A stretch of DNA of 64,000 nt from Hydrolagus colliei (taxonomy: Eukaryota), in NCBI GenBank assembly GCA_035084275.1, contig CM068744.1, positions 2,604,001 through 2,668,000 of the forward strand, read 5' to 3'. The position numbers and the translations under genes are program-made. Below the pieces are notes generated by a model. It was given only the letters and a program-made list of their open reading frames with translations, did not search any database and was not told where the DNA came from. This document shows, piece by piece, positions 3,299 through 35,522 of the stretch; within the stretch, counting starts at the first letter, position 1; each line of letters opens with the position of its first letter.

Positions 3299-3601
3299 TT
3301 AATGCTTCTTGTATGCTGTAATGGATCCCGATTGAGTTGTTGAATGAAGTGATTGATCATCAAAGAAAATATGAGGGCGAATTTTATCTATGATCAGTAG
3401 TTTTGGTGTACCGTAAAGAACAAAGGCTTCATCCACCTCAAGGCCCCAGCCGCGAATTATCTTCAAAGCTTTTGCTCCATTAGTCCCACCGCATTTTGCC
3501 ATGATCAAGTATATTCGGATTGGGCAATCCGTACGTTCATTTTTGGCAAAGAACTTTTTCTGGAGTTTGCCGAGAGCTTCCAAAAATCCTACGAGAGGGG
3601 C
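3299..3601 (-). CDS. Gene B cN-I-like terminal exon (homolog of exon 6, diverged, shortened)
   Basis: acag|[100 protein letters not shown]. Phase 0 matches the donor at 28684. Linkage to gene B is inferred. Confidence 0.88.
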   Translation of the reverse strand, partial: APLVGFLEALGKLQKKFFAKNERTDCPIRIYLIMAKCGGTNGAKALKIIRGWGLEVDEAFVLYGTPKLLIIDKIRPHIFFDDQSLHSTTQSGSITAYKKH

Positions 3602-3819
3602 CTGTTTGTGAAACAGGATGCATTACAACTTCAGAAACAACTGGCGTTCAATACAGTACTTCCAAAACCTAAAATCACAGACTTAAGTTAATTTCTGCTA
3701 ATTTCATACTCTGTCACTTTAGGTAACCAGCACAATAGTTAGGTTAAAGGGACCTGAGTCTAATTTCCCCTTCATCTTTTGTGTGTTGTGCTTGCCTTCT
3801 TTTAGGTGACACATACAAA

Positions 3820-4010
3820 TAATCCTTGCATTTGATATAGCGCCTTATCACATCTTCTAGACTTCTCAAAGCACTTCACAGAATATACTGTAAAGTGAAT
3901 TGACTGCATATTTTGTGGGCGAAAGGCAGCAGACAATTGCGCAGCAGACAGTGTCCCACAAACAGCCGTGGATGGACTGACCACATTTGTTTCTTTGAGG
4001 GATTATTAAC
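3820..4010 (-). mobile_element. SINE 3' fragment
   Basis: Same core and tail as the element at 74-409. Confidence 0.75.
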
Positions 4011-5689
4011 TCTGGACCCATTGCTCAAATACTTCCCCAGCCAGAATTCCCAAGCTGTTTCTTGGCCACAGTGCTAATCTGCCATCAGTGCTTAGTATTT
4101 GCACAATAATTGCAGGGTTGTCATATCTTCCCATACTTCCTCTATTCTTTATGCATCTCAACTCCAATCAGCATCTCTCCTGACTGATCTGGAGAGATGG
4201 CCATGGAAGGATTATCAAATGAATGGTGTAGAAAGGCTTCTTTCCTTTACAGTGTGTTTCCAATCACCCATTGCTCCCAAGGCACCCACTTTCCTGCAGA
4301 AAATACAGAATGATACGAGAACCATAAGCATTCAACATTCCCACCTTTTGAACTCCCACTTGTGTTAGAGAATGGTTGATGAGTTGATAAATTATACGTT
4401 TGGAATCTCAAGCAATTCACTAGATAACTGGGCTGGTGAGATTTGGAGGCATTTATTTTAATATAAAAGTTTAAACATAATATAAAGAGGTGACAACAAA
4501 CCTACTCTTTTGAAACTTACTGCAAACAGAAGCAGTTCTTATTGTATAGTATAGTTATCAATGCCCTACATACTTTTGGAGCAACTAAGTTCCAAAAATG
4601 ACCTGGAAAAACAAAACTTTTTCAAAATTTGTTAACTGAACCAAATCTTAACTGAACCAATTAAAGAACCCAAATCTGTATTTTTAAAAAATCTTTACTC
4701 ACTCTCAAAGCTCACTGGTAGATCAGCGCATTTCAACAGCTTTTTTATTTTAATCTGAACATAGGATTTCTCTAACAGTACGAAAGAAACTCTGCCAACA
4801 GTATTCCTTCCATTCAGTGACGGAGAAACAAATGTGGGAAAGTACAGCTTTGAAAAGTGAAACTGATATAATGAGGACAATTCTTATTCATAAGGATTCT
4901 AAATGCTCCAATGGCAATGTAACATAATAGAAATTGACAAGTAAACTTAAAAGAAAAAAATCACAAAACATTTCAGTGAAGAGAACATCATATTGACAGA
5001 TTCCCAGCATCTGTAGTATTTTGTGCTTTGATCATATTGACAAATATTGACAGATCAGAGTCAGTAGCTCTCAAACGTAGACAAATTCCTCAAACTACTA
5101 ACCATGAACAGGAATTAGAAACAGAGATAAGAAGAAACATAATTAGGTTACTCACTAATAAGTGCTTTGGTTGTTTGTGTTGGTTGTAAGATATAGAGTG
5201 TAATGGAAAAGTTACATTGCTGCAGAAAAAGCAATCCACCACCACCCACGCCACCTCCCATATTTTGACAATTACCTTAGCTCTAATATTGCTAAATCAA
5301 TTTGTTTTTCCAAAGGCATCTAAGTTAAAGCACTGGATTGAGTGTCCACTAGTTTGTTTGAGTAATGAGAACGTGCCATCAATACAATTCTCTAATGAGC
5401 CAAGATAGACTACATTTATAGGTACAGTATAACTTGGGCAAAGCTTGAACTGTGTATCAGCCAATAGCTAAACAACAAAATTATATTTATAGAGCGCCTT
5501 TCACATTGGGACGACATCCCAAGGCGCTAAAGCATCGGTACTCTTGATTAGATATTGTTCTGATTGCAAGATTGACACCATTGACAGAGTATTCTAGAGG
5601 CAGAGTTTACTATCTTGCTATATGGCAGGTATAATAAAGAATGTTATTTATATCCTATCGTAAGCAATTCTAAGGGTATTATTATAAAG

Positions 5690-6186
5690 ATTGGGTTGTA
5701 TTGGGACCTGTCACCATTTGGGGCCCGTCATATCCAGGGAGTTCATTATTCTTTAAATGCCTTCCTTGGTGGTCTCCCCAGCTCCACAATAAACAAAATA
5801 CAACTAATTCAGAACTCCAGCAAATCCGCACAAAACTGCATATACTCATCACACCAGTCCACTGGCTCCCAATTACTGAACAGATCGATTTCAAAATCCT
5901 CTCACTCATTTCAAATCATTTCATGCCCTCTCACCTTCCTACCTATCCTCTTTCCCTCAATCCTTCCACCTTGTCCACTCCCTCTCCATTTAAAAAATCC
6001 CACCTAAAGACCTTCCTTTTTTGCAAGGGTTTGGGGAAAGAGCGGGGAAGTGGGAATAATTGGATAGCTCTAATTGACCTTCTTCTGTGTTTTACGTGTG
6101 ATTCTAAATGGTCCCTGTAATCAAGCTCTCTGAGACACCGTCCGGCGTGGAGGGCGCAATACAAATCCAAGTTATTGTCATTGTAG
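5690..6186 (+). mobile_element. L2-clade LINE 3' fragment
   Basis: Translated remnants ...INKIQLIQNS and HITPVHWLPITEQIDFKILSL, ...LKTFLF, plus L2-type tail. Confidence 0.75.
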
Positions 6187-6919
6187 TCAATGGAAGAATT
6201 GACTATTAGTCAAATCATTCTCCCTCCCTTCCTCTATTTCTTTTGTCAAAATAAAATCTGTGGTTCTTCTCACATCACAGCTAAAATGAATGCACGTATT
6301 CATCCTCCTCAGTACGTCTTCACTTGTTGTATACACCAATTCATCAATCGTTGACTTATAGAAGGCTGGTCTCCAAACAAGGCTAGCATCTGCAAGCAGT
6401 GACAATATTTCAAGATGAAGGAGTCCTATCACTGATGATCAGCAGTGAATTCACGCGGAATATTAGCCTGAAATCCAGGTTTGATAATTTGTCTAAGGTT
6501 CTGATATTTTTGATGTTCTGATTAGTCTGTAGTCTAATGTGCAGTCTGTGGATTATCTTCTGGCGGTGGACTTCCAGGACTTTTTATTAACAAATAGCAA
6601 TATTCAATGTCCAGTTCAAGTAACAATCAGAAACCAGCACCCTCCTTCACAATCATACAGCTGCTCAGCAACTTCTAAATAAAATTTTAACTAAAAAGAA
6701 TGTCAGATGAAGTAAGACAGCAGTAGAATTATATACTGTAATAGTAAGCAATGAGGGAAACAACTATTTCACCTGCACTAGTAGTATGGTATCATAAAGA
6801 TCAGATGCTTAAATTGCCATTCATTAATGTTAGCAAAATTGTAGATGATAACAGTTTATATGGACTAAGATTAGTATCATTCAAGCTCAACATGCGAACT
6901 CTCTTTGCTACATTCGCAA

Positions 6920-8100
6920 AAACAACTACCACAAAATTACACTTGTACAGCACCTTTCATGGCAAGAGGACGAAGGATAGTCATTGTCTCAGACTGGAGC
7001 TGGGGACATGGAGGGTGGAGGGAAAGGGGGGGGATTTGGGGTAACCGATGGGACCATCGAGGTTCTTGAGGCGGGACTTGAAGGAGGCTAGGGAGGGGGT
7101 GAGGCGGAGGGACTGCAGGATGGAGTTCCAGAGTTTGGGGACAGAGTGGCTAAAGGCTCACCCACTAATGTTGGGGCGGGTGGGGTGGGGGATGTGGAGC
7201 AGGGCAAAGCTGCTGAGCGGAGGGTGGACAGGTTGGCGTTAGGAAGTCAAAAAGGTAGAGTGGGGCAAGGCCACGGAGAGCTTTGAATGTGAGGACCAAT
7301 GGAATCGGGGGAGGATGGGGGAGATGGGGTCACAAAGCTTTGTGTGGTAGAGGACACGAGCCGCAGAGTTCTGGATTATCTGCATCTGTGGAGGGAGGAA
7401 TTGAGAAGGTCGACATGCAGGGTATTGCCGTAGCCGAGCCTGGACATAATGAAGGCATGGATGAGAGTTTCAGCGGCCTGAGAGGTGAGGAAGTAGTGGC
7501 TGAGTTGGGCAATATCACAGAGGTGAGGGAAAGCAAAGCAGATCATGGCTTGGATATAAGGGAGAAAGGACTGTTGAGGATTGAACAAGACACCTACATT
7601 CCTGACTGGCTTCATGAGGTTGAATGCGCAATCATGGAGGTTGATGCTGCAAGTGCTTGATACCTGAAGGCACAGGCGCAAACCAATCAGAAATACCTCA
7701 GTCTTGTTGACGATCAACTGTAGAAAGTTAGCTCTCATCCAGGATTTGATGTCTGACAGGTAGTCTGTCAGGACACCAGTGGTCCTGGAGTCGAGGGTAG
7801 AGGCAGAAAGATAGAGTTGGGTGTCATCCGCATACATATGAAAGTTGACCCCATGTCTGCGGATGATGTCACCAAGGGGGAGCATGTAGATGTTAAATAC
7901 TAGCGGGCCAAGGACAGAGCCCTGGGGGTCACCACGGGTGACAGTGCGGGGGCTGGAAGAGAAGCCGTTGGTGGTGACAAAGTGGAGATGGTGGAAAGGT
8001 AGGAGTCGAACCAGGCGAGGGCAGGTCAGTCAAGATTGAGCTGGGAGGAGAGGCAGTGTAGGTTGGAGTGGTGGACAGTGTTGAAAGCAGCAGAGAGGTA
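6920..8100 (-). mobile_element. L2-clade LINE, reverse transcriptase 3' part (degenerate)
   Basis: ORF 7376-7885 [26 protein letters not shown]...[15 protein letters not shown] contains the RT YADD motif; 3' tail near 6920. Confidence 0.9.
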
Positions 8101-8999
8101 ATGCCCCCACTTACTTCCCTCCATCCTCCCCCCCTCCCCCCTACCCTCCCATCCTCCATCCAGGAGGGCAGTTACCAGTTGGTTATTTGATATCTGACAA
8201 GTGTGGGTTTAAGTCCTCTCTAGGTGAATGGAGGTAATAATAATAATCCTTTCATTTGATATGGCGCTTTTCATGTGTTCAAGACGTATTAAAGTGCTTC
8301 ACAGAATATACTTTAAAGTGAATTAACTGTACATTTGTAGGAGAAAACGGGGCAGCCAATTGGGCACAGCGGTGTCCCATAAACAGTCGATAACAGGAAC
8401 CAGTGAGTTTCCTGGTGGGCAACACATCTCAGCATGAAATGCAATTTGTTTTTGGTGAGGGGGTCAACTAGGTGTCCAACACACGAGGAAACCCATCGCC
8501 AGGCTTAAGAGTATCCAAGCCAAGCTGAGATTTCCATGCAATCCACCCACACATGGAAATCCCAGAGACAGATTGTGCCAATGGAATGCACACTCTCCCC
8601 CAGAAAGACACATTCTGCTTACCTAATTTTGGAAAGTATTAGATGCATGTTGGCAAGAGCCAACACTTGGGGAACCCAGAGTGTGTTTTGGGGTTACTGT
8701 TGGTGTCTAACCACCTAAACCCTCATAGCTTCCCATTGATATTGCTGGCCAGTAAGCTTTCTGCTGTTTAGTCCATAATTGCACAACAATAACAACTTAC
8801 ATTGTGGACCACCCTATCCATTCAGGCTTTGGCTTTCAGAGTTAACAGGAGCTGAGTGGGAGGATAGTCACTGGTTGGTTATTTAACATCCATCAAGCAC
8901 AGGGTTTGAGCCCTCAGGAGGTGATGGTGGGTACCAGGAACTCCCTGTGAGCTTCCTGATGGAGAACACATCTCTGCATCAAATGAGCAAGAGCATTAC

Positions 9000-9510
9000 C
9001 ACCATCTTTCTGTCCACAGCTCAGGCACATGTCCCTTCCACCAATTGCAGATGAAAAGCTTAAGCAGCAGCCGTTTGCCTTTCCGCAGGCCAATCAAGGT
9101 GGGTTCTAGGCACTGGACGTACACACATTTGTTCACTCAGACTCTAGGTAGAGCCTTCCAGCAGTTGTCACCCCAAGTCTCAGAGTTTCCTCATCAGTTA
9201 TCTGGTGGGCATACCTTCAATGTGGTGGATGGACCTTTACACGACAGATGGTGACGTGTCAGCCACTTTGATGTTCTTGAGCCTATTGTCGTGTACCAGA
9301 CTTCCTCAGCACCAGCGAGAGGGGCCTTGGCAAATAGACGCGCACACTGTGAAGCCGATTCCATCTCCAGGATTCTCAGCGATAGGTCAGTGTAGGCCAG
9401 TGTCCTCCCTTCCTGCAGCCACTTCCCGTGTTTGCCGCAAATTCCACCTTATTGCTTGACGCTGGACTTTGCAAATGGGCCAGTGGAAGCCTCTCCACTG
9501 CCAGGTGCAA
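9000..9510 (-). mobile_element. possible RTE/RTEX-like LINE C-terminal remnant
   Basis: Minus-strand remnant ..WRWNRLHSV...AQEHQS..HVTICRV resembles the W..LNRLR..C..C.HI..C tail of RTEX-type ORF2; heavily decayed. Confidence 0.35.
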
Positions 9511-10715
9511 CAACAAAATTATTTTCTTCCACGTAACTTTTGCAATTGTATCCATGTAATGCAATCCATATATTGCAACACACAATCTCTTTTCTAATGA
9601 AAACATGTTGAGTCCCACAAGTCTCTCTCAAGAGGGGCCAAATTGATTTGCATCGCATGCATTTATACTCTTAACATTATATATTCAATATTCTGGTAAA
9701 GCTATTTCCTCAAGGCAATCGTGGCAGCTGGGTTCCAGAACAAAATGTTTCATGCTTGAATGTCTCACACATGATTTACACTGGGATTTTCATGGCAATT
9801 TGGCTAGTTTTTTGTGCCAATTTGGCATGAATTTCATGGTGAATCAGCACAAAAAGCATTGTATAAACTATACATTAATCTTTTCTATAAGCCTCATGTT
9901 CAAACACTTAAGTAGATTATTGCCAGTGATTTGTCCTTGTGAACTCACTTGCTGGTATCCTGAATGAATTCCAGTGGATATAAAGCACATTATTTCTTGT
10001 ATATCCATTGCAATTATGTATAATGACTTATGGGCTCCTTTAATTAACATAATAGTAGGTTGTAAAATGTTCTAGAGGGCTTCCCCGATGTCTCTAGTAC
10101 TAACAATCCAAATGGTCTACAATTTAAATGTAAGGAGCCATAAACATTTCATATCCTAGGATAGCTTAATCTTCCCACTCTTTATTTCTTCAAACCCTTT
10201 CTCCCTCATAGCCATAATCTTAGCTCTCTGCGGTTTATCTGCATCTTTCGATCTCTCACACAGCTCTCATCAAACTTGTATGAAGTCTGTTCATTTTACT
10301 CTCCAGTAACTTAGTCACTGGCTACACAATAATGTTTCTAGACTTAATTCTAGACAGCAATGTCAACCTCTCTTATTTTCAACAAATAAACAGATTTCAA
10401 AACTTTTATCATCATTCGTCTTATTAAAAATCTCTTCCATGATCTATCCACATTCTCAACGTACTCTTTCTTGTCAACTCAGTAGCGTGTATTGCCATTC
10501 GACCAAGTTCTGTCACTTCTGTCATTGTTCCTTGATTAAGACTCTGGCACATGGCTGGTGTACTTTACCAATAGCGTCTGTCTGTCTGCAATCAGGGCTT
10601 GTTGTTTATCGACAAAAGGTTGATCCTCGGTGTTGGAGAATGATCTCTACTGGTGGAGGAATGAGCTATAAGCAATATTCAGACGTATATTGAATATTAT
10701 ATTCAATAATCTGAC

Positions 10716-10785
10716 TCTTTCAAGTCAGAACTCTCTGAATATTATATTCAATATAATATAAGTCAGAGAGTTCTGACTTGAAAGA
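10716..10785. repeat. near-perfect inverted repeat / hairpin
   Basis: 23-bp perfect arms tctttcaagtcagaactctctga (10716-10738) / tcagagagttctgacttgaaaga (10763-10785), with a self-complementary AT-rich spacer. Confidence 0.9.
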
Positions 10786-11554
10786 TGCCTCCATAGGGAT
10801 TATATAGAGGTATACAAGATTTAAAATTGAAAATATGAACCTGGAACAATACATTTTATGCATCGTAGAACACAAGGTTTAGAATTGCAAAGGGCAAATT
10901 CAGGAAAGATATCAGTAAACATTTCTTTACTTCTGGGTATCTGTCCAGAATCTGTCACTTGGATGAAGCTAGGATGTTGGATTTATTCAAAAATATTAAA
11001 GGATGTTCTTCATCTGAACCAACCTTGTGGTATGAATTTGGATTTCTCTGTTTCCTGCTGTTGTTGAGCATTTCGTTTGTGTCCATCACATTTCCTCCAA
11101 GACACAATGCTAAGCCATCACAATTTTGACATGTATTTTGGGAGCAAGGTCCCATCAAAGCCTTAATGTGAATAAACAGGTACTCTCTCTGGTGGGTTCT
11201 CTATCATCCATTTGAACAGGTAGACCGCATTTCAGTTTAAACATCTGATCTGAATTATAGAACTTCTGTCAGTAAGCACTCTCCCAGAGCTGAACATTGC
11301 ATCAGCCTAGAGTTGTTTCAACATGGGAATTGAACCACCATCAATTGGTGCCAACTGAGCAAACTTTGACACATTATATGTGGTCTTGGAAAGTGAGTTA
11401 AATCCTTACATATCAAGTTTAAACTGGCTGATTCTTAGAATTCTCAGCTCCATTAATAAGTTAATACTGAAGTTGATGGCCAAGTTGTCAGTCAAATATC
11501 AGAAATTGGTGACATAGAAAAATTGAGTATCAAGAAATCAGATCAGTTGAGTCT

Positions 11555-11930
11555 AGGAGCGTATTGGTTAGAGCAATCACTTCATAAGCAAGAGAACCCA
11601 GGTTAAATTCCTGGCCGGGGCAAAACCTTATCCAAGTTTCCTCACTCTATCACTCTATTCTGCTAGGTAGACGTGCCTCTGTCTACCTAGCAGTAAGTAC
11701 TAACCTAGTTGATTGGCAGCTTTCTTTTCCAGGGATAATAGTACTTAAAAAAAAACTTGATCACTCAATCCACAATGTTTCATGGGATGCTGCTGTGCAC
11801 ATTTGGCTGCTGCTTTATACCCACAGAATAGTCAATTCACTTCACAATATATTCAGTCGAGCGCTTTGAGATGTCTCAACAACGTGATCAGTTGCTATAT
11901 CAAATACAATCATTATTAATATTATTATTA
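11555..11930 (+). mobile_element. tRNA-derived SINE
   Basis: Head ggttagagcaatcacttcataagcaagagaacccagg, core and tail ...gctatatcaaatacaatcattatta. Confidence 0.75.
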
Positions 11931-13500
11931 GATACATATGCACATAATAAATAGGAGCAGGTGTAGGCTTTTCGACCCCTCGAGCCTGCTCTGCCATTTA
12001 ATAAGATCATGGCTGATCTTCTAACCTAATTCGATTTACCAGCCCTATATACATTAATGAGACAAAAATGTACCTACCCATTAGTTCAAAAGGGAGTGGG
12101 CTGTGGGACGGTGTATCTGTTGCATGGGTGCATGGGTTCAGCACAAGACACATCTCTTCCAAACAATAGGAGAATTGTTCTTATACTCTTTTTGGCCCAA
12201 TGTGAAGGAGTGAGAAAACTGCTTGTTTTTTGGGGAATATGGCAGTCTGATACTGTCTCACACATCGGCCCAGAAGTCTGGAAACGGATGTTAATTTGAA
12301 GCTGTCCTTTCTTTTACTTGAGGCGGATGTTCAAGAAGGTGATTAGCATTGCCAAATTGTCAAGGTTTTCAATCAATAATATATCTGGCTTTCTTCAAAT
12401 TTGCATAAAATAAATGGTACGTATTCTGATTTCTGATCCAAATGTGATAAATCCCGAGGTGATGCATTTCTGACAGGGACTACCGAGAATGGAAACTGGA
12501 GACTCTTGCGCAACCAGAAGCTCATAAAGGCTGAGGTTTGCATCAGTAGAAGGTACCATAGATAAAGGATTGAAACACAATATTCACAAGCAGTTAGAAG
12601 TCTCAACTGTTGCAACAGTTTCTGATTTGTGAATATCACATTTTCCTCCCCAATGGGTACAAATGGGAAGAACCTTCTGCAATCAATACAAAGGTGAAAC
12701 CCTGTATAAAAACACTCATGCTGTAAGAACTTTGACCATCTTTCCCAATAAAATGGATTGTTTGCCTGAAGGGCAGGAAAAAGTAGAATACCGTCAGAAA
12801 TTGCTTCTCAAAAAACATAAAAAATATGATGTGACAAGAACAAATAGCTTGATAAAAGAATTATGAACACATGGTCATATTTCATATTGTTATATTCCAG
12901 GCCAGATCTAATTTCTAAATAAAAACAGAATATTTTAGTTAAATTTTAGTTTAGTGTAATCTATAATGGTCTACATTGCAGAATTTCATGGCCACCAAAA
13001 ACATACTTTTTCATTTGTAGGGCACAGTAGCTGTTTGTGGTCAAATACATTTTACAAACTCTTAATTGTCTAAAATATACAGTAAATTTGCCTATAGTCC
13101 TGTATTGAGGGAATTTTGATGGGAAAGTTTGCGTTCGCCCTAACCTAATAACCTAATAGCTTTGGTTTCTTTTTATTTTGGATTTAGAATATTACCTTTA
13201 TTACCTGGCAGTTCCTACTCCTCATGTTACAGCTTTACTCTGTGAGTGACATTGGGTTAATGTCTACAGGCTAGTCAGAGCTCAAACTGTTCCTGACCAT
13301 TTCACGGAGACAATTGTAGAGAGTCAAAATCTAAACAACAGCAACAACAATAACAACTTACATTTATTTATATAGCGCCCTCCACACTCAGCTGAGTCTA
13401 AAAGCAGTTGATAATGGTGGAGCCTGAGGCCGAGCCAGGAGGAGAGGGAAGGTGACAGTGAACACAGTCAAAGGAAAAGGTCTTCAGGTGCAACCTGAAG

Positions 13501-13809
13501 ATAATAATAATCCTTGCATTTGATACAGCGTTTTTCACCTCTTCTAGACGTCTCAAAGCGTTTCACAGAATATACTGTAAAGTGAATTCACTGTATATTT
13601 GTGGGCGAAACTCGGCAGCCAATTACGCACAGCAGCGTCCCCCACAAACAGCCGTGAATTGAGTGACAAAATTATTTTTTTTGAGGGATTACTATTAGGT
13701 GCGTGGAGTAAGGAAACTTGCCAAGGTTTCGCCCTGACCTGCCTAGAATCGAACCCAGTACTCTCGCTTGTAAGGCGAGTGCTCTAACCACTGAGCTACA
13801 AGACTCCAC
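13501..13809 (-). mobile_element. tRNA-derived SINE (near full length)
   Basis: Reverse complement gtggagtcttgTAGCTCAGTGGttagagcactcgccttacaagcgagagtactgGGTTCGATTCtag, plus core and (tta)n tail. Confidence 0.88.
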
Positions 13810-14319
13810 GAGCTACAGGACTCCAAGATGGGAAAAACAGAAAGCTGGAAACCCACAAGAAGGAAGAATGAACAGCTGAAAAAGAAAAAAAGTTCATCTT
13901 TCGGATAATTGAGAATTCTGGAAGAGTCATAGCATAAACATCAACCCATTGTTCTCTTTCATACTTTAAATGAATCGTTATCCATCTCCAGCCTCTATGT
14001 TTTAATTTTAGACATTTTGCACTCTCAGTTTTGTTTTGTTGATTTTCTGCATGAAGTCACAGTTTTAACAAACAAAAACACCAACATCTCACATTGCTCA
14101 AGTGAATTCTGAAGTTAAAAGAAAGCCATCTTATGAAAGCCATCACAATTGAGCAAATAACTAGTTTATACTGCATGGTATGAATTACTATTGAAATGAG
14201 TAGAATAACTTTGGTAGTGTATAACAAACATAAGTCTTGTTCAATAGTAATTTCACATCTTTTTAATAATTTTTCAAAAATAATTATTGACAGACCAAAA
14301 CCTTTGTTGATTGTCAGCT

Positions 14320-14685
14320 GCCATCTTGGTTCAGTTGGTAGCTCTCCTCTTCTTCTGCGTCTGAAATGATAGGTTCACGCTCCATGTGGGAACTTTACAG
14401 TCCAGGCTTCTCCAGTACAACCACTGAGGGATTTCTTGAAAGTTCTGTGTGACATTCTGTGCTTTTGTGCAGGTTTGATAAATCAGGGGGTTGATTGTGC
14501 TGAGGTCGTTGTTGAAGGTCCCATAACGCTATTTGAAAAGGGAGGTTTCTTCTGATATTCTGTGAGGCAAAGCACCAATCAAACCAACCATTCACTTCAT
14601 GACTGTTTGTGGGACCTTGCTGTGTGCAAAATAGCTGCTGCATTTGCATAGTTGCCTGTGAAGGTGCTTTGCGACATTTTGATGT
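14320..14685 (+). mobile_element. old DeuSINE-like element
   Basis: ggttcagttggtagctct head; gactgtttgtgggaccttgctgtgtgcaaaatagctgctgcattt Deu-like core. Confidence 0.65.
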
Positions 14686-15020
14686 TAGGTTTGCTACACC
14701 CTATGCAAGAATTGTTATATTCCATTACACTTTTTATTATTGTTGGAAGAAGTGAATCCATTAACCAAGTTTTTGTTTCTTTCCAAACACTCACAGGAAA
14801 CCATTTCTCTATATCCTTGGTCACAATATACAATTGTGTCAATATTGAGTTCGCTTACATCCCAAGACGATGTGATAAACATTTGTGTTGATAGATTGGA
14901 TTTAAGTGAACTGGGACAATTCCTAATGAATGTAGATGCACATTATTAACCTCAACATATCAGTTTGTATTCCTACCCAAGGAGCCAATGGGGAAACGGT
15001 GGTTTGGAAGATTGAAACAT

Positions 15021-15388
15021 TGTGGAGTCCTGTAGCTCGGTGGTTAGAGCATTTGTCTTGCAAGTGGGACACCTGGGTTTGGTTTCCAGTGGGTAAAATG
15101 TTGGGCAAGTTAGCTTACTCCACACAGCTCGGTTTGCCTGGCAGTAAGAAGGAACCCAGTTGCTAGTTGATTGGCAGATAACTTTTCTGGGGGTAATAAT
15201 TCTTTCAAAAAAAAAAAATTGGTCACTTCAATCCATAACTGTTTGTGGGGCACTGCTGTACCCAATTGGCTCCTGCGTTTCACCCACAAAATATACAGTC
15301 AATTTACTTTAGAGTATATTCTGTGAAGCGTTTTGAGACATCTCGTAGATGTGATAACATGCTATATCAAATTCAAGGATTATTGTTA
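15021..15388 (+). mobile_element. tRNA-derived SINE
   Basis: gtggagtcctgtagctcggtggttagagc head through ...gctatatcaaattcaaggattatt tail. Confidence 0.85.
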
Positions 15389-15859
15389 CCCCTTTAGTTC
15401 AGAAAAAGGTGCGTGCTGGAATTGGGACTTGGACATGGTTTTTTTCAGCCAGTATTGAGGAATATGTCTATTTTAATATCTGGTGGTAAACATCACAAAA
15501 CAACAACAAAATTACACTTGTATAGTGCCTTTCACGTCAGGAGGATGTCCCAAGGTGCTGGCAAAATAATTGTTTATGTTTAAATATTCACAGTACAGTT
15601 TAATGATTTGTTAAAATTAATGTTGTTAACACAAGGACAGGTTCTAGATTAGGTGTGTATATTTTGGTTGTTGCGTTTATTTTCTGGGTGAGTTAATCAG
15701 AACATAAAGGAAAATAATAGAAATAATCTCAATGAAGTGATGAGGCACCATAGATGCAAAGATTATTATTATTCTTGTTATTAGAGTTATGAGTATGGGT
15801 GACTATGGCTGGAAAAGGTAGCTTATTGGTCAGAATTGGTCTGCTCCTTTCCAATATCT

Positions 15860-16605: not shown

Positions 16606-17444
16606 ATTTATCGCTGATATATTTATTTCAGGTTTGGGTATGAAAACTACAAATAGGTCTGCAGGCCCGTGTTAAGGAGACAGATGAGTTTCTCTTTGGT
16701 TTGCTCTTGAGGCTCTTTCACGCTGTCCAGCATGAAAGGTGCTATGTAAAAACAAGTTGTTGTTGATATTATTTAAATGACACTTTGTCTTGATGGTTTC
16801 ATTTCCCTCCTCTTCCAGCATCACCATCTCTCTCATCCTCATCAAGATTGTCTTATTAATCCTTGCATTGGATATCTCACAGTGTTTCACAGCTTTCGGC
16901 AAGGTGTGTATTGATAGGCAAACATTCTTCCCTAGCCAAAGGTAGGCCAGTCCTATCAAATTTGCTATGTCCTCGCTGGCTCAGGCTGACAGCTGCTCTG
17001 AGCTGCCAAATGCCAGTACAACACTTGACTGTCCAATGCCTTGGGACATCCTTCCAATGTGAAAGGCTCTACATCAATGTAATTAATTGTTGTTGGCAGG
17101 GGAGATTCTAACATAAATATCCCAGCAGGGTTTGTGCAGAAAATACAGTTGGCAAGGATCCTCCATCTGTTAATAAGATATACAAGACAGATTAATTTGA
17201 TTTTTATCATGTGCATCTTCTCATTGAATGTAAGATAATCACAGTGTATTAAAGGGGAAATCGGTTGGCAATGTTCTACAGTTCTCTGTTACATTGATGT
17301 TCTCAACAAATGTCCTAATTTTACAACAATCAACTGAAATTGTTAATCCATTGTATTCATCAAATTAAATTCCCCATCTACCCTTTGGTGTGATTTCTAT
17401 CTTAGACGGTGTCTTTGTTGTTTTTAAAAAAGAATAGATACAGA

Positions 17445-21145: not shown

Positions 21146-24100
21146 GACTGCGGGTCGGAGAGATAGGTGTTAAGTAACAGTATCTAGTTAACACTGGTAG
21201 TGAATCTCTTTCTGGCATCTTGTTTGGATTTTGCACTCTTGGTTGGATGCCCAGATGACATTTTTGTCTGCAGCTCCAACAATGTATGAAGGCTAGACAG
21301 CCCGTCCGTGAGGCTAGCTGGTAATGGCAAGTGTATCTTTGCTGCCACCAGGATAACAGTGATAAATGCATTATCCTGGTGGGTGAGCAAAGCCTAACTA
21401 ACAGATACAGCTTAAAGAATAAATCTTAAATTGGGGGACTCTGATTCGTTTAATACAATCATAAGGTCAAAACCAAATGCATAGTCAATCTGTGCGGTTA
21501 AGGCAGCATGGAGTGAAGATAGCATTAGGACAGATATAAGAACTCCAGTAGTATGATATTTTTGGGTTAGCTATGTGAAAGATATACAAGCGTACAGATG
21601 TGCTTAACCAAACACAAACCAAACTATCACCATAGAAAAGTACAGTAGAGAAGAATGTTAATAATAATACTCCTACATTTGGTGTTGTGCCTTGACATCG
21701 GGAGGACATCTCAACATTGTAAGTGTAGTGACTGGGTGTATTTGGGTAAAAGCGTCAATCAATTTGTGTACAACAAAATAAATAACCATAAAATAAATAA
21801 CCAATTTAGCAGGTGAAATTCCCTTCTCTTTTAAAATAGTATCATGGGATCTTTAAAGTCCATTTTAAGACACAGAGGGAACCTTGGGTTCAACATTTCA
21901 TCTGAAGGTTGGCCCCTCAGCAATGCATTAGGATGGCAGCTAACAGGGCTGATATTGGCTTTGAATCTTCTAACTCAGTGGGTTGAGGTCATTTGCCATA
22001 ATTATTCCTTTTTAGATATCTGCTAAGCTTTCTACATACGCATGACATTTCCATTTATCTAAAATGCAGTGAATGCATAACCTCTCCCACAGGAAAACGC
22101 CTGCAAACCTAATCACCCAGGCACAGATTGGCTGTGCTGCTGCAGTGTAACGAGCTTCACCACACACCTGCCATTGCCTGGCCAGCTTCCTGCTGCTTGT
22201 TGCTTTAGCAGTACCCTACCAGTTAGGGCTTTGGCTTCCAGGGTTAAAAAGAATTGATGAGATGAGACCCTGCGGTAAGCAGTGAAGCTCTTTGAGAAAC
22301 GCAGGTATAATATTGGGCTAATGCATTACGGGTCCAATTTGAAGCTACTGTCTAAAAATAACAGTGGGAAGACAACAAGCAATAAGAATGATGACTTTGA
22401 AATATTATATATGGATGTTGTCCTGATGTGGTTAGATGACCACTACAACAACAGCAAAATGACACTTGCACAGCGGCTTTCATGTCAGGAAGACATCCCA
22501 AGGCACTGGACAGGCATTGTTTCAGAGCCGAGCTGGGGTCGGGGACGGGGAGGGTGGAGGGAAAGGGGGGGATTTCGAGAGAACGATGGGACTGTCGAAG
22601 AGGAGGGTCTAAAGGCGGGACTTGAAGGAGGCCAGGGAGGGGGCATGGAGCAGGCCGGAGCCTGCTGAGTGTAGGGGGTGATCAGGTTGGTAGGGGGTTA
22701 GGAGGTCGTAGACGTAGGTTGGGGTGAAGCTGTGGAGGGCTTTGAATATCAGTAAATTTATAGAGGGGGAAATGTTAGATTAGCAACCCTACAAGCTTAT
22801 TTGTGTATCTGCTATGAATTTGAACTCAGAGTCACGGCTGATATTCAATTGGAAGTTGTGAATTATCAGAGGACCATCTTTTGGATGACACAGTCAGCCC
22901 TTCATCCCATTTGTTTTCAGCCTTCCAGAATACGCACATTACTGTCTTCCCAAAGCAGCATTGAGTTGTTGGTTTAAATGAATCTAGTGTCCTGACATCA
23001 ACCACCCTTCCTGATAACATATTCCAAAATGAAAGATAGCGACCACCAACAAGGACAAAACCATACATGTGTACAGTAACCTTGATGTAGGGCAGAGTCT
23101 TGGAGTGCTTAACAATGGCAGAGCGCAACGCCGAGTTGGGTGGAAGCAGAAGGTGAACGTAAGCAAGGTTGAAGAGGATGTGATTTAAAAGAGGGGAAGC
23201 AGGGGGAAAGACAGAGGGATTGAGGGAGAGAGTTACAAAGCTTTCAGCCATTACGCCCCAAAGCTTTCGTCTTAATCATGATTGCATTCTAAGCTAATCA
23301 TGCCTTGCTTCAGCATGTGTTACAAATGTACTTCAGCTAAATTTCCTTGGAATCAATCAGAAATCCTAGCAAAGAACACTGAGCAATATGTCACCGACTT
23401 AACACCAGGGATGATAACTGTAGCTTTCATGACAAATAAAGAAATTTAAGGGTAATTTGATGGAGGAATTTGCAGTAATGACAAGCTAAATAGTGATTGA
23501 CACTTCCCTCTGATGAAGGGATCAAAAATAATGGGGCCATAATTAGAGAAATTAGATCAGAAAATAATTTTTCCCACAGAGCAGGTAAACATGTGAATGA
23601 ACAGCCCCTGAAGGCCTTAAAGCCATTGGGACGTTTGAAAGGGTGGTGAACATTTAGGAAGGAAAAGGCATGAAGAAATAGGAAAATAGGAGAAATATAA
23701 ATCTGATTATATCTGATGTAATCCAATCAACTGTTAGAATAGATTAGGCTTGATGGGTTAAATGGCCTCCTCCCATTCTAATGTCTTTGCTCTTTTTTTC
23801 CAACCTCAATCCTAAATCTTACAATGTGTTTGTTTGTTCCAACAATGGGTTCTTACGATCTCTGACTCCAATCTTCCTTTTGCCAAATGCTCTGCAACAA
23901 ATCCCATTCTGAATGATTGGCAACATTGGGATGGGGATCATTGAATCCTTTGCTATTTTTCTTTGGTCCAACTGTTGCTATCATTCTGATCTCTGTCTCT
24001 GTATATGAAGTGACTGATGTCAATTCAACTGGCAGTGCACTGTCTCATATTTCACTCTCTTATTTTCAAATCTGGCACTGCATCTCTGCTTGATTCTATC

Positions 24101-27100
24101 CCTAGATTTGCTGTGTCTGGTACAAATTCTGTCCATCTCACTTTGCATCTGAAGTATGTGTGCAAAGGCCAACTTTATATCTGCTCTTAATTTCTGTAAC
24201 TTTAAACATAATGTTTGCTCAACTAAGTTCCAATTATACTCCACATATCCTGCCCTGAACAGGCACACTGCATTATAATCAAAACTCATCGCGCAATCTT
24301 GCACTCAAACTCATTGATTACTGAAAACGTCAAATCACTGGAACTGTCATGGACTTAAACATGTCATCATTCAAGGCCCGAACATACTTTTAGCCTTAAG
24401 ATCATTGCCTTGAAATGTAATATCATGGAGATCTTCTGTAGCAAAGTAGAAAAGAAGCAAAGGATTTTTTTTTTTTTTAGGTAAGCTTGAATCCTATGAA
24501 CCAGCGTGAACAATTGCATATTTCATGGACCAAAATGTAGTGACCGTTCTGGGTGGTTTCAGCCCAACCATTGTACCAAAGGTAATACTTCCAAAGGGGT
24601 CTTTAGCTGTCAACTCTTTTAATTGTGTTGATCATAAACCAGATAGTAATTATCACTGTTGAGTTTTCATCAATAATGTTTCATCAAACATTGGATAAAT
24701 ACAAACATTGGATAAGTAACATTGGATAAATACAAATTTACAAATGTTGCACCATCTCCACAAACATAATTAAATTAGTTCTGTACTTCTTTGCTACATT
24801 ACAATATTCTACCATCATATGCCAATAGTTAAGCATCCCCTTACATCCATACCCCTGGGAAGGGAAAGTAAAAAGGCAAGTAAAGGCACCAAGATTGAGT
24901 TCTGCAAAGAGGGGAGAGGAAACCAAAGACCTGGAACAGCCTGGTTGCATCTGCCAGTTATACCTTAGGCTGTGCTAGTAGCTGTCAATCAAAATCTGTT
25001 GGACAGTTCTTTCTCTAGGCCAACTGGCTCTAAATCTGATACCAATAAGAATTGAAACGGCCTCATCCTGCTTTGGTCTGTGTAACAGTTTTATGTGGAT
25101 TGGGTGTGCCTCCTTCCAAAGGATGCTCGGGTTAATGGACAAGTATTTAAACAGATTATATTTAACACACCTTTCAGTCATACTGAAAGTTTTTGGCATT
25201 TGCAAATTCAAGGTTTACTTGCGTGCAGTTGCTCAGCCTTAAAAGTATTTTCAAACCATTTATAGTTTTCACAATGCTCCTTGGTTTATGCTTTTGGGTC
25301 TGTGTGTATAAACACAAGAATATTTTTTTCTATAGCTTCCCTTCCCAGATTAGACAACCACTCACAAACTGTTCCCCAATCAATCTAATCCAGTAAGCAA
25401 GATATATCATATACATTGTGTATTATCAATGCAGTGAAATTCACGTAAGTTGAATCAGTCAGAACCATAACATTTAATATGACTTACACAAATTATGAGT
25501 TTCAGTCAAACATCGATCTGTAGGAATTTTTACTATTATCACATAACAGTAAATAACTACCTTGTTTCTCGTACTTGTTTCAACCGATCACACTGTGCTG
25601 TACTGAACATGCGGTATTTCATCACTGTAGCCAGTACATTCAACAACAACAACAACCACAAAATTACGCTTGTATACCGCCTGTCATGTCAGGAGGACGT
25701 CCCAAGGAGCTGGTCACATGCAGTGACTGGAGAAAATTTCCTTTCCCGTACGTGTTTCAAATGGAATGCATGGATACTTCAATCCTTTGTTAAGTGTGCT
25801 TAGGGAAATGGCTCAAGACTTAATTTCCCGTGATTCACACACACTAGCTGTACACGCAGTAATGGATCAAAATATTGCACATGCGTACTTCACTGCAGTG
25901 ATGGGCTAAGACTTCATTCATAATAATAAAATCACCCTTGCATTTGATATAGCACTTTTAACATTTTCTAGATGTCATAAAGTGCTTCACAGAATATACT
26001 GTAAAGTGAATTGACTGTATACATGTGGGAACATATGTGACTGCATATATGTGCGCACTGCATTTCCATGCAACGTTTGCAACAAGTGTAGGAAGCAGCA
26101 CTAAGTGAAGTAGTGGTGCTACAAACTGAGAGTTAATTTACATAGGAGTGAGGATTAAGACCAAGAAACAGTTACGATCTAGCAATTTATCCGATTTATA
26201 AAATACGACTCGTGCAAAGAAATCAAACTGTTTTTCAGTAGGAAATTGTGGAGGGTGAAACGTGGGCCAAGTTCCCTTACTCCAGATGCCTCTGTGGTCA
26301 ATATATTTGTAAAAAAGTGGAAAATAAGTTTGATTAGACTATTTATATTAAATTCTTATTTCTGTAGCTATGCTATAAAAATTGTATCGCACAGACCAGA
26401 TAATATGTAATTATGCAGCTCAGTGATTATGCAGACACTTTTACTTTACATATAAAGCTTAGATAGTTTACAGTGTTTTATGTAAGGCACACATCTGCAC
26501 AAGTTATTAGGATCGATTCAGCCTGCCATGTTCAGTATTTTACTATTTGAATTCTGGAATATGTGCTCATTACACAGATTACAAAAGAACATAAGAACAT
26601 AACATGAGAACATCAGAACATATTCTTAGATGAATTGCAATTCACGTATCCACTTTATACAGTGGTTTATTAAAATTCATTCTCTCTGAGTCCATGTGGT
26701 GAATGGTTCCAGATCAGTAATTGTTGTTCACCCCCATCAGATTTATCAAATGTCTGTGTAGCATCACAAATGTTGTCAAATTACAAGAAGCAGGGCTTCT
26801 CCAGGTTAATTATGAAGTGAAATTGTGACCAACGTAGGGCCCAGTCACCCCCTCAGCCAGAGCTGTTTCCTTCTCGTCTCTTCAATTCTAGTCAACCATT
26901 TGCACCTAAACTAAAAATCCCTCTTGACTACACCAGAGTAGCCTGTGATGATCGTTGTGCCTTCATTATTAACAAGTTGGACTTATATAGCAGCATTCAC
27001 ACAGAAGCACTAATGGATTTAGCAGTGGGAGCAGTGGATACCAATATGTGGGCAGGCTTCAAAGTGACCAAAGACATGGTTCTAAAGATAGATCTCTAGA

Positions 27101-28683
27101 AGGTTTTAAAAAGATGAGACATTAAACTACAATTTTCAGGCTTATATCCTATTCCAAAAAAATATAAACCGGATCCTTACCGAGTTTCTTTCCATTTCTT
27201 TGGTGATTTTCAGGTGTATTCCATCGAGGAGAGACACAAACAAATTGTCCCCAGGAATCACTGATACAGTATCTTCATTGGTTCTCATCATAGTCCATGG
27301 AAGATGAGGCCGGACAGGAGAGATGTCTCATGTTTTCAATGATGGAGCATCCTTGTGTCCAGTTCTTGCCTCAAAAACAATCAACTTACCAGGGTGCAAG
27401 AATGTATTCAATACACAAGTAACCATTGAAAATTAATAGCTGCTTTATTTTGGTTCCAAAAGCTTTGAAAAATGCAACCAAATCCAGAGGCTTGAATTTG
27501 GTCATGGTCTTTTCCAAAATTCTCCACAACCTGAACTTTTAAGACAACGGTCTTCAGGTTAAGACCATGACAAATTTCAGGCCTCATGCACTTTGAGAAC
27601 TCCGGTGCTCCCACTTCATATCACAATTGGGAAATGCAGACACTGTCTTTAAAACACTGCCCCCCACCCGCCCCATGGGCACATTGCTGTCAAGTGTATG
27701 TGTGAGAGTCAGAGCAATAAAACTAAGGGTTGCTTCAAACAAATGCATACGAAAAAGTAACACGAGACACACATTTGCATGCATCATACCAAGAGACACA
27801 TGTAGCAGGACTCAGCAAGAAGGGGTCTCAATTATTTTATGGAATGTATTGGGTTTCGTGAATGAGTTTGAAATGAGTAAAGAGCAAAGATTGTTCTGTA
27901 AACCCAATGAAAGACAAGGTTGTATAGTTGAGGCAAGTAAGGTTTGGTAGAAATGGAGCATATTGAAAAGGTAGAGGAAATGAACATCAAGCAGAGCATA
28001 GAACAGAAAAAAGTGGGAGAAAAGAAAGGAAATCTGAGAAAGAAAAGTTAATGCCAGTTGCCTGATTTTGCTTAGTAGAGTTGCACAAATGAAGTTTAGT
28101 TTTTTTAAATGAACTATTCAAGTTGAACAGCTTCCAAGAAGTATAGGAAAACACGTCATTGACTTCCTCCATATAATTCAACCTGGAAAAAGCATTACAT
28201 AGACTCAGTGGTTGCTGCTCTCACTACAAACAAATATTGCAATCAGTCCATCCATTAAGGACAGTTATGAATGCAATAACGAATCATATACACATTGAAA
28301 CTGAGTCAAATGTAAATTATTGAGGACTGAGAGAATACCAACAAGAACCACAGAATAAAGACTATTCTCACATAACTATGTTCTTGCATTGAGAAGCTGG
28401 GAGATTGCTTTCCCTGTATACAGATTAGCGAATCATGCCACAATTCCAATATGTAATGCTGATCGTATGGCTTATCTCCAAGTACAGATTATTCTGATAG
28501 ATTGTCAATCACTAAAACTGTTCAGAGTGAAAATCACGATGAACATCCAACCAATACAGAAAATATGGGATCACACATGTTTCAAACTTATCACACATAA
28601 TACACCACAGGAAACCAGCATTGCTACTTACGTAAAATAGTCGAATATTGCAAAAGAAAACTTGAATGGAGAATGAAGCATAC

Positions 28684-28877
28684 CTGTGATGGCTTAGATT
28701 CCTGTTTGCTTTCATATTTTTCTAAGTCGAAGGACATGTCTAATCCATGATTTCTCCCATATTTCTCGACATTTTCTTCATGGTGCACAAAAGAATCGCC
28801 ATCGAATGCCACCCTCAGCTGTTGCTCTGAAAGGTTGGAGTCTTTGTCCAGGTGGTTGGTACAAGCCGCTGCAACTC
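28684..28877 (-). CDS. Gene B cN-I-like exon (homolog of exon 5, diverged, +9 bp)
   Basis: tttcag|(G)[64 protein letters not shown]|gtatg, 194 bp, frame preserved. Confidence 0.9.
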
Positions 28878-30920: not shown

Positions 30921-31043
30921 CTTCGCCTAGTGCTTTTGCAACTTTTAAAGGATCTGATGACAGGTACAGGTTGGTATGATATGCTTTTAAATAATTGACA
31001 GGATTTGTTCCTCCTGTCATACAGAATCTTTCAATTGTCAAAC
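30921..31043 (-). CDS. Gene B cN-I-like exon (homolog of exon 4)
   Basis: ttttag|(G)[40 protein letters not shown]|gtaagg, 123 bp. Confidence 0.93.
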
Positions 31044-31844: not shown

Positions 31845-31974
31845 CATAATGATTGATGCTGTTTATCAATCTGACTCCTACTTGGGCATGGTTATTGGTC
31901 ATCAGAACAATGTCAAACAACTCTTCACTACCAGGATAAAGTTCATGTAGTCGAGAATTAACGGCTTCCATTGC
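31845..31974 (-). CDS. Gene B cN-I-like exon (homolog of exon 3)
   Basis: ttccag|[44 protein letters not shown]|gtat, 130 bp; 36/43 aa identical to gene A. Confidence 0.94.
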
Positions 31975-32892: not shown

Positions 32893-33060
32893 CTTGAGCA
32901 AAGGGAACCCATGTCCCTTCTTGAGTGGCTCATTTTCGTGATCCTGCTGGTATTTCACATAACACTCCAAGCCTTCCGCCTCGAAGATCGCCCTCTCATC
33001 GGTCATGTTGAAGAGCGTCCGTGAGGACACAGCCACGGTGATGGCATGCTGAGCTTTGGG
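32893..33060 (-). CDS. Gene B cN-I-like exon (homolog of gene A exon 2)
   Basis: ttttcag|PKAQHAITVAVSSRTLFNMTDERAIFEAEGLECYVKYQQDHENEPLKKGHGFPLLK|gtagg, 168 bp. Confidence 0.93.
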
Positions 33061-33200: not shown

Positions 33201-33362
33201 AACTCTGTTTTTCTTCTTGGCTGAGGATGGTCTTTCTGGAAGTGGATTGTGACACAAATCCTGGTCATCCATAGTGTAGAGCCCACAATCGCTCATCTCA
33301 GCTGCTTTGCACTCCTTCCCGGCGACTTGGCGTTGAACGGCTGGCAATTTATTGCAATGGAC
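33201..33362 (-). CDS. Gene B putative N-terminal exon
   Basis: tctttgcag| acceptor, 162 bp open: VHCNKLPAVQRQVAGKECKAAEMSDCGLYTMDDQDLCHNPLPERPSSAKKKNRV, |gtgagt donor, phase 0-0. Ends in a basic patch like the cN-I exon-1 end and lies 140 bp upstream of the conserved exon. Confidence 0.7.
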
Positions 33363-34171: not shown

Positions 34172-34470
34172 TCAACAACAAACAACAAAACTTACATTTA
34201 TATAGCGCCTTTCACGTCGAGAGGACATCCCAAGGCGCTGTACAGTCAGGTAGGACAAGAGCAGGGCGGGAAGGATCAGGGCAGGATAAAGCATAGTAAG
34301 AAAAGTAACTGTATTAGTGGGCGAAACATGGCAGCCAAATTGCGCACAGCAGTGTCCCACAATCAGTCATGGAAGTGGGACTAGGGGCAAAAGGGGGTAA
34401 AGAAGCAAAAGGGGAGGGGTCGAGGCAGGGGGAAAAAAGGCAGGAAAGTCGACTGTATATTTGTGGACTC
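34172..34470 (-). mobile_element. composite SINE-like element (Deu-type core + different L2 tail)
   Basis: Same architecture as 54591-54830. Confidence 0.6.
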
Positions 34471-34674
34471 AGTTTCATTTGACAACAAAAACCCTCCCAA
34501 GCTACCCCCTTCACTTTTCAGTCAAAGTGTCAAGGTAATATTACTGAAGTTTGTGCAATATCTGATCAAGACCTCTAGCTCCCTCTTCCACCACTTCCAT
34601 CCACGCTCCCCACCTCCATATCTTCCAGTTTTATCCACTTTAACTTATTTTTCTATTGCTCAGGGCCTGGGTTA

Positions 34675-35070
34675 GGGTGCAAAGGAGATTTACCCAAATA
34701 ATACCGGGAATGAAGGACTTCAATTATGGGAGGCTGGGATTGTTCTCTTCAGAGCAGAGATGGTTAAGGGGAGATTCAATAGAGGTCCAAATTATGAGGG
34801 GGTTTTAGTAAATAAAGAGAAACTGTTTATTCTGTGTTGGTAACCAGAGGACACAGATTTTGGATAATTGGCAAAAGAACCAGAGGAGAGAAAATGATAT
34901 TTTGTTTTACCCAATATAGGCAATATTGATAGTACAATCTTAATGGGGGTGCAGGAACAGAGGACTGGTGGGTGGGGGGTTCAGTAAATCTTTGAAGGTG
35001 GCAGAAGTGGGACTGGTTGGATAGCTCCTTCAAAGAACCGGTACAGGGATAATGGGCTGAATGGTTCCAT
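34675..35070 (+). mobile_element. CR1 LINE 3' fragment
   Basis: ggctgggattgttctcttcagagcagagatggttaaggggagattcaatagaggtc (LGLFS.EQR.LRGD.IEV). Confidence 0.75.
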
Positions 35071-35477
35071 AATACAGTGACTTTATGTTGGGAGAACGTC
35101 TGCAAAGCTATTCCCAGGATTTACTGTAAAGTGTAGTGACTGTATTATGTTAGGAGTTAATTTTAGCACAGCAAATATTCCTCAAGGAGACATGAAATGA
35201 GTAATCGATTTTATCTCGGGAATTGCTAGTCGGGACACCGGGAAAAATTCCCTTTTCTCTTTGAATAGTACAATAGACGTCTCAAGGCCCATCATACCAA
35301 ATCCAAGGATTATTATTAGAAAGTTTTTAATGTCCAATTGAGCAGGCTGCTAGCGCAGTGGTTTAATATCTCATATGAGCAGTGGCACCTGGGACAATTT
35401 TTTATAATTTTAAATCTATTGTAGCCCTCCCCCCTAACCTAAAGTTATCAAAAACGTCAAATGAATCAGTTACTTAC

Positions 35478-35522
35478 CTCACTATTGGCCTTGAGATGAT
35501 GCTGGCGCATATTAGCTTCCAT
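35478..35522 (-). CDS. Gene B (divergent cN-I paralog), putative first coding exon
   Basis: aaacATGG Kozak context, MEANMRQHHLKANSE, strong GAG|gtaagt donor, phase 0 compatible with the next exon. No homology support. Confidence 0.5.

Follow-up and report, generated by a model that had tools for sequence, protein, structure and literature searches.

A window of 64,000 nucleotides (nt) from contig CM068744.1 of the 1.0-Gb genome of the chimaera Hydrolagus colliei (G000:C3:2604001-2668000; exon coordinates below are window positions unless prefixed G000:C3 or L031) contains two genes of the cytosolic 5'-nucleotidase I (cN-I) family. Gene A is canonical; gene B, which lies between gene A and RDH14 on the minus strand, is not. 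In the reading favoured here, to which a probability of roughly 0.45 is assigned, gene B arose from NT5C1B by tandem duplication, is intact, and has three candidate last exons (6a, 6b, and 6c); its likely inactive protein products would join and tune cN-I oligomers. That these products are inactive on nucleotides is, judged from the residues they have lost, probable. Lost catalysis fits better than a new specificity because none of the predicted isoforms has the canonical cap or a full set of the residues that bind phosphate and metal, and because the replacement residues vary from species to species.

Gene structure and divergence of the catalytic half

The sequence-only reading of this DNA described gene B as an intact gene, and this is borne out: the seven-exon model gives a single 374-amino acid (aa) open reading frame with no internal stops, every intron is bounded by GT..AG, and the five conserved introns have the phases of gene A (0,0,1,1,0). 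The proposed length of about 374 aa fares less well. The frame is open, but conservation marks the Met at 33296 as the start, leaving six coding exons and a protein of likely 337 aa. In most models of gene B orthologues the N terminus is an MSD-x-x-[LI]Y peptide, which aligns to this Met, and tblastn with the N termini of sharks and Callorhinchus milii gives 61–83% identity at the exon that contains it (33201..33362, minus strand; acceptor at 33362, GTGAGT donor, phase 0). As the initial 38 aa of the longer model are matchless in these N termini, the upstream exon (35478..35522, minus strand; 15 codons, GTAAGT donor, in frame with the rest) may be 5' untranslated. Gene A likewise has an acceptor-like site immediately 5' of its ATG.

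The other coding exons, also on the minus strand, continue the gene toward the left edge of the window. Exon 2 (32893..33060) begins a degenerate N-terminal HAD domain and matches the cN-I profile PF06189 with an E value of 1.2e-16. Exon 3 (31845..31974) is identical to gene A at 36 of 43 positions, exactly as first reported, and exon 4 (30921..31043) at 26 of 41; protein P0135 is without exon 4. Exon 5 (28684..28877; E 8.7e-06), common to all three predicted isoforms, keeps DGD, which is followed by SF instead of AV and by a degenerate cap segment (FSDESE). Intron 5 (3602..28683, minus strand) extends over 25 kb, and no other cN-I exon was found in it. An insert of 11 aa is optional in rays and skates, where it separates exon 5 from the terminal exon (P0221, P0223, P0225, P0228, P0229, P0131, P0134); a scan of intron 5 for an extra exon or for this micro-exon gave 127 candidates, the best scoring 11 and none convincing. 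The last exon within the window, 6a (3299..3601; 100 aa; E 1.1e-20), is missing the Thr of motif II and the Lys of motif S. Exons 2 and 6a are above the curated cut-off of PF06189 and exon 5 is just below it; the exons of gene B are 80–98% identical to C. milii proteins.

Orthologues of gene B were found in C. milii and in at least 22 shark and ray species among the matches listed (120 of 136, 120 of 540, 120 of 500, and 150 of 390 in the searches made), and none in bony vertebrates among those same matches. Where named, they are called "cytosolic 5'-nucleotidase 1A-like", and those listed carry PF06189. Comparison of the chimaera with six elasmobranch species illustrates how unevenly the protein has changed. 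Chimaera-to-elasmobranch identity in exons 2, 3, 4, and 5a is 76, 88, 85, and 74% for gene B versus 75, 92, 85, and 73% for gene A, while in the cap it is 39% for gene B (56% among elasmobranchs) versus 86% for gene A and in the core of exon 6 it is 65% versus 92%. The asymmetric divergence noted in the initial reading is thus confined to the catalytic half. The accompanying suggestion of selection rather than pseudogene decay is also upheld, because intact orthologues occur across chondrichthyans and exons 2 to 5a are as conserved as those of gene A.

The catalytic half is eroded at positions that are 99–100% fixed in canonical cN-I. In the counts that follow, canonical rows are those with a letter at the position (up to 289), 6a is represented by 23 rows, 6c by five, and 6b by H. 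colliei only. In HAD nucleotidases, passages of PMC3946280 describe a motif II Ser/Thr, preceded by three hydrophobic residues, and a Lys as holding the phosphate, and Asp residues as holding Mg. Motif I of cN-I is given in PMC13156797 as DXDX[T/V][L/V/I], a pattern that gene B fails at position 5 with both Asp present: Val occupies this position in 283 of 284 canonical rows and in none of 28 gene B rows, where it is replaced by Phe, as in H. colliei, or by Leu. The motif II Thr, invariant in canonical enzymes (289/289), is missing from 6b and from every 6a row (0/23); it is found in 6c (4/5) in all four elasmobranch rows, that of H. colliei having Ala. The Arg of TAR (canonical 289/289) is kept in one of 23 6a rows and four of five 6c rows and is absent from 6b. 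The Lys of GAPK (canonical 288/288) is kept in 3/23 6a rows, in 5/5 6c rows, and in 6b, and is present in all three H. colliei ends. The second Asp of motif IV (canonical 289/289) survives in seven of the 6a rows (16 others have Glu) and in none of the 6c rows; both motif IV Asp are lost in 6b and in the 6c of Leucoraja. The basic residue of motif S, located in [R/K]GF[W/L] according to PMC13156797, is a Lys that is lost in 6a (0/23) and kept in four of five 6c rows. The AHVPYG strand is absent from gene B. Each end is without a different set of catalytic residues, and the residues that replace them differ between species, as at relaxed sites.

These counts reshape what was first proposed from the H. 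colliei sequence. The motif changes quoted then (AVLFSDESE altered to SFVHHEENVE, a motif II segment of IMAKCGGTN, loss of the AAHVPYG tail) are all present. DGD, GTPK, and FFDDQ are indeed kept in H. colliei, but among 6a orthologues the GTPK Lys is found in 3/23 and the second Asp in 7/23; of the two functions suggested for gene B, a pseudoenzyme gains strength from the residue losses across orthologues, and a new specificity is, for 6a, weakened by the loss of this Lys and Asp from most of them.

The identity of one of these residues is itself a matter of interpretation. In the AlphaFold model the GAPK Lys stands at the start of the helix preceding the motif IV strand, which we take to be the usual place of the motif III lysine, and it is likely the motif III Lys of the family. 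Motif III as published for cN-I is K(X)7DD, which designates a lysine other than that of GAPK (PMC13156797).

Three candidate terminal exons

The gene was at first taken to end at exon 6a. This holds for one of its ends but not for a sole end, as the last exon recurs twice more beyond the left edge of the window, at distances of 4.2 and 9.0 kb; the stretch 1..3298 (minus strand) leads out toward these copies. Exon 6b (G000:C3:2599462-2599782, L031:5462-5782, minus strand; 106 aa) keeps the Lys, but its motif II Thr is gone, as are the two Asp of motif IV; exon 6c (G000:C3:2594704-2595021, L031:704-1021, minus strand; 105 aa) has lost the second motif IV Asp, keeps the Lys, and ends in T-R-V. 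No fourth copy of exon 6 of gene B was found in 134 kb. A 15-nt acceptor word has three occurrences in the same 134 kb, one before each of 6a, 6b, and 6c. All three exons begin in phase 0, and each terminates at a stop of its own (after 100, 106, and 105 codons) with ATTAAA 48, 51, and 50 nt further on; at random places, the chance that a window of this 11-base width contains the start of a hexamer is 1.7%, the window having been chosen post hoc. The acceptors and poly(A) signals were checked in the H. colliei genome only. The shared acceptor, together with a separate stop and poly(A) hexamer for every copy, suggests that 6a, 6b, and 6c serve as mutually exclusive last exons, and the three are candidate tandem duplicated alternative terminal exons with counterparts in other species.

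Two other explanations of the extra copies were rejected. Assembly or haplotype artefacts are ruled out by the divergence of the copies, which are about 70% identical to one another in DNA, by the cover of 6b and of 6c by single DNA contigs of run X1, and by the counterparts in other species. Nor are 6b and 6c the ends of separate genes, as no match to exons 2–5 occurs between the copies.

A quick tree of exon 6 (61 rows, 120 columns; P0133 left out) places 6a in a clade of 18 rows (support 95), 6b in one of two rows (95), and 6c in one of five rows (97), and each of these clades unites chimaera and elasmobranch rows. Exon 6b is 66% identical to the second repeat of a model from Hemitrygon (P0229), in which a 6a exon is followed by this second repeat. 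Exon 6c groups with the RefSeq isoforms P0136, P0219, P0139, and P0234. RefSeq isoform pairs in which exons 1–5 are common and the last exon differs are available for S. canicula (X1/X2), Narcine (X3/X4 and X1/X2), and Leucoraja (X1/X2), so that 6a/6c pairs are represented in a catshark, an electric ray, and a skate; a 6c-type isoform is also found in S. torazame. For 6a, three Logan contigs of 963–1150 bases encode 248–314 aa of the skate-type form, and as they read across exon joints they point to spliced transcripts. No RNA run was found covering window positions 28400-35700 among the matches listed, which include one run of unstated kind, possibly the source sample. Of the variants listed from the DNA contigs of that run, one lies in exon 5 and one in 6b; both are synonymous, and they are too few to use.

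The C terminus of 6c (L031:704-718) has the form T-x-V in H. colliei and in three of four elasmobranch species (P0136, P0219, P0139), resembling a class I PDZ-binding motif; the 6c of Leucoraja is without it.

It could be argued that gene B is a slowly decaying duplicate and that 6b and 6c are unused relics. The branches of both exons are long and no model joins exon 5 directly to 6b, as such an account would have it; yet the frames are open in chimaera and elasmobranch lineages, which parted roughly 400 million years ago, the N-terminal half is as conserved as that of gene A, and 6b is 66% identical between chimaera and stingray. Decay is accordingly regarded as highly improbable.

Fold, oligomers, and competing interpretations

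Within cN-I, the N-terminal half can be aligned to the C-terminal half (hhalign probability 97.6 over 126 columns), and AlphaFold models of gene A from a sawshark and of gene B from C. milii are both predicted to contain two tandem HAD folds. The closest solved folds belong to small phosphatases of the HAD type, T4 Pnkp and MDP-1 among them: residues 28-174 of gene B superpose on the T4 Pnkp phosphatase with a Z score of 11.7 (root-mean-square deviation 2.7, 120 residues aligned) and residues 203-350 of gene A with a Z score of 11.8 (2.9, 122 aligned). The N-terminal repeat is without the motif I aspartates even in active cN-I. The whole family thus appears to derive from internal duplication of a small HAD domain (in gene B, 32893-33060 against 28684-28877) of which the N-terminal copy is non-catalytic. 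In the C. milii model of gene B the mean pLDDT (predicted score in the local distance difference test) is 79, with the core mostly above 85 and the cap (209-227) below 50. A pseudoenzyme acting as a regulatory subunit is consistent with both the fold, which is predicted to be kept (HAD Z 11.7), and the sequence constraint on gene B. With Foldseek, neither model had a match at E <= 0.001, and passages of PMC10383617 and PMC6769685 contain nothing on cN-I structure.

Active cN-I is a Mg-dependent AMP/dNMP nucleotidase activated by ADP. NT5C1A is reported in PMC11938158 to be active as a homotetramer. The simplest use of gene B, by analogy, would be entry into cN-I oligomers, which it would damp or redirect. 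The conserved N-terminal HAD-like domain would be spliced to one of 6a, 6b, or 6c, and phosphatase activity would be lost through the changes in the cap and at motif I position 5 in all forms, together with those of motif II, III, or IV particular to each end. The later steps are the most speculative: the retained N-terminal domain would carry oligomer or effector contacts, gene B subunits would replace active ones in the tetramer of gene A and so lower or re-localise AMP breakdown, and the three ends would provide tissue- or partner-specific versions. The strongest form of this proposal, a cN-I regulator dedicated to cartilaginous fishes in which a conserved docking domain is spliced to one of three differently crippled catalytic half-domains, retained over some 400 million years and each acting as a different brake or address on AMP breakdown, is rather doubtful. 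Prediction of a complex of sawshark gene A (44-357) and gene B (48-336) without alignments scored 0.52, and one unrelated control scored higher, at 0.68.

A number of observations tell against inactive subunits of this kind. Both motif I Asp are present in 29 of 29 B-type rows and the first Asp of motif IV in all 23 6a rows, a pattern seldom expected where a site is wholly dead. The K(X)7DD Lys is kept in 21 of 23 6a rows (and in none of the five 6c rows), and H. colliei 6a itself has GTPK and FFDD. The 6c rows mostly keep the motif II Thr (4/5), the Arg (4/5), and the GSPK Lys (5/5). With respect to the ends, the three poly(A) hexamers are not independent, owing to the shared ancestry of the copies; long branches, including those of 6b and 6c, are flagged in the exon-6 tree; and the support for 6c isoforms comes from automatic gene models. 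Exon 6b is seen only in two models that chain 6a into 6b (P0001 of C. milii and P0229 of Hemitrygon), which are probably prediction artefacts, a genuine chained 6a-6b product being conceivable but less likely, and no direct joint between exon 5 and 6b was found among the gene models and contigs compared. The assignment of oligomer and ADP contacts to the N-terminal domain is our own inference, sequence searches of the PDB having returned no cN-I structure.

Some of these same features could mean that one or more of the isoforms, with 6c the likeliest, are catalytically active as a HAD phosphatase or phosphotransferase on a different, perhaps larger substrate, with the cap opened and the ends serving as specificity modules. 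The DGD present in 29/29 rows is as expected of such an enzyme, as are the Thr, Arg, GSPK Lys, and motif S Lys that most elasmobranch 6c rows keep and the small HAD phosphatases, T4 Pnkp and MDP-1, that are the nearest solved folds. But the second Asp of motif IV is gone from five of five 6c rows (both Asp in Leucoraja), the H. colliei 6c has Ala at motif II, the cap has not been fixed again in a new form (39% identity between chimaera and elasmobranchs and 56% among elasmobranchs), and the replacement residues are species-variable, like those of relaxed sites. An active isoform is thus considered distinctly unlikely.

The residue losses and the conservation of the N-terminal domain would also be compatible with a pseudoenzyme that operates independently of gene A, as a scaffold or sensor that binds nucleotides or metals, assembles into oligomers of its own, and has its partners or locations set by its ends. 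An invariant DGD, a conserved N-terminal peptide that is gene B's own and unlike that of gene A, and the T-x-V terminus of 6c in H. colliei and three of four elasmobranch species, with its likeness to a class I PDZ-binding motif, would all suit such a role. Exons 3 and 4, however, are 84% and 63% identical to those of gene A, favouring cross-assembly if the two are co-expressed, and the Leucoraja 6c lacks the T-x-V end; independence from gene A is judged somewhat unlikely.

If the dedicated regulator outlined above is correct, gene B would offer a natural map of the half of cN-I that carries oligomer and effector function, and adenosine and AMPK signalling would be affected. Natural selection has here parted the two HAD repeats of cN-I, the non-catalytic one held tight and the catalytic one dismantled in three ways, so that the role of the N-terminal repeat becomes directly testable. 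That role is relevant to human NT5C1A/B, which has been proposed as a target for drugs that disrupt its oligomers (PMC11938158).

Origin, neighbouring genes, and known systems

PF06189 profile searches match five places in the H. colliei genome: the gene A/B locus and contigs C30, C24, C523, and C498. In a quick tree of 43 proteins, a single clade with a long stem unites the eight gene B rows (SH-aLRT 100); gene A is its sister (84), and both sit within the NT5C1B clade (95). The C30 gene falls with NT5C1A. Gene A (43636..56304, minus strand) has all motifs intact, as expected of the canonical cN-I it was first taken for, and this phylogeny with NT5C1A and NT5C1B refines it as an NT5C1B orthologue. 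Its first coding exon is located at 56304-56173, and the others at ~55524-55357, where the 5' edge is hidden under N, 52400-52271, 49222-49100, 44752-44568, and 43998-43636. An exon 14 kb past 6c (G000:C3:2579601-2580209) matches PF00106 and is 81% identical over 203 aa to a named marsupial RDH14; an atlas search with this SDR exon returned generic names only. RDH14 is, we assume, a marker of the NT5C1B locus, which is echoed by a fused marsupial model, P0481. Given the tree placement, the RDH14 linkage, and the lack of a bony-vertebrate gene B among the matches listed, gene B appears to have arisen in chondrichthyans by tandem duplication of NT5C1B. PMC2660306 places the divergence of nt5c1a from nt5c1b at the base of vertebrates. 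The label "cytosolic 5'-nucleotidase 1A-like" masks both the NT5C1B origin of gene B proteins and their loss of catalytic residues.

Other features of the genome deserve mention. A third, divergent cN-I gene (G000:C24:10200232-10203289, L036) falls outside the NT5C1A and NT5C1B clades, with motifs that look intact (DGDCV, LLTSR, GAPK, FFDD). Near-identical, fast-evolving cN-I copies are found on small contigs (G000:C523:79470-87149 and G000:C498:125553-133225; L038-L041) with intact-looking motifs and a truncated tail; that of C523 groups with gene A (support 87), and the two are possibly haplotypes or copies of one chimaera-specific duplicate. Fragments similar to the reverse transcriptase of long interspersed nuclear elements (LINEs) occur within intron 5 and in the interval separating the two genes (window 7379-8029 on the minus strand, 18770-19432, and 37842-38345); the YADDTQLY that they contain is presumably a LINE reverse transcriptase motif.

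Pseudoenzymes and duplicated alternative last exons are both known kinds. No literature on gene B, its ends, or chondrichthyan cN-I was found, in a search with most subscription journals outside its coverage, nor any on pseudoenzymes of the cN-I family under that description. A paralogue with three differently crippled catalytic ends across cartilaginous fishes would be a new form of these kinds; an inactive cN-I paralogue has been reported in medaka. With vertebrate NT5C1B (PF06189), represented here by gene A, gene B shares its family, its coding exon number and phases, the predicted tandem HAD folds, the RDH14 neighbour, and DGD. It differs in having, in every row, an altered cap and an altered position 5 of motif I, in the motif II, III, or IV losses of each end, in its three candidate last exons and its own N-terminal peptide, and in having no AHVPYG strand. 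Some mammalian proteins of NT5C1B type (P0336 of Sarcophilus, P0328, P0332) also have changes around the cap and motif IV, such as FFNDD and FFDDH, hinting at relaxed catalysis in that lineage.

Teleosts provide another set of cN-I-like proteins, without motifs I and IV, in Arapaima (P0393), Electrophorus (P0466), Muraenolepis (P0431), and a member of a Cirrhinus cluster, as well as P0451, P0462, and P0470. P0393, P0466, and P0431 resemble gene B in being cN-I-like, in missing catalytic motifs, and in being annotated only as 1A-like or 1B; unlike gene B, they have lost motif I too, and they fall outside its clade, nearest the C24-type gene, on long branches that make this placement unsure. They are probably of independent origin, and cN-I pseudoenzymes may have arisen twice.

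Medaka Nt5c1aa is described in passages of PMC13156797 as a cN-I paralogue without measurable IMP-degrading activity beside an active one. It is a teleost duplicate derived from NT5C1A, with one change in motif S and motifs I and III intact, whereas gene B is derived from NT5C1B, is far more remodelled, and has alternative ends. For the regulatory role proposed here, the working model is human UGT1A_i2, in which use of an alternative exon 5b yields inactive isoforms that hetero-oligomerise with active UGT1A and suppress it (PMC5075577); the analogy is of an alternative last exon that creates an inactive regulator. In UGT1A the fold is unrelated, the inactive form comes from the same gene as the active one by way of a short exon, and binding has been demonstrated, according to the same paper; gene B is a separate paralogue, its three ends are duplicated catalytic half-domains, and its binding to active subunits is proposed.

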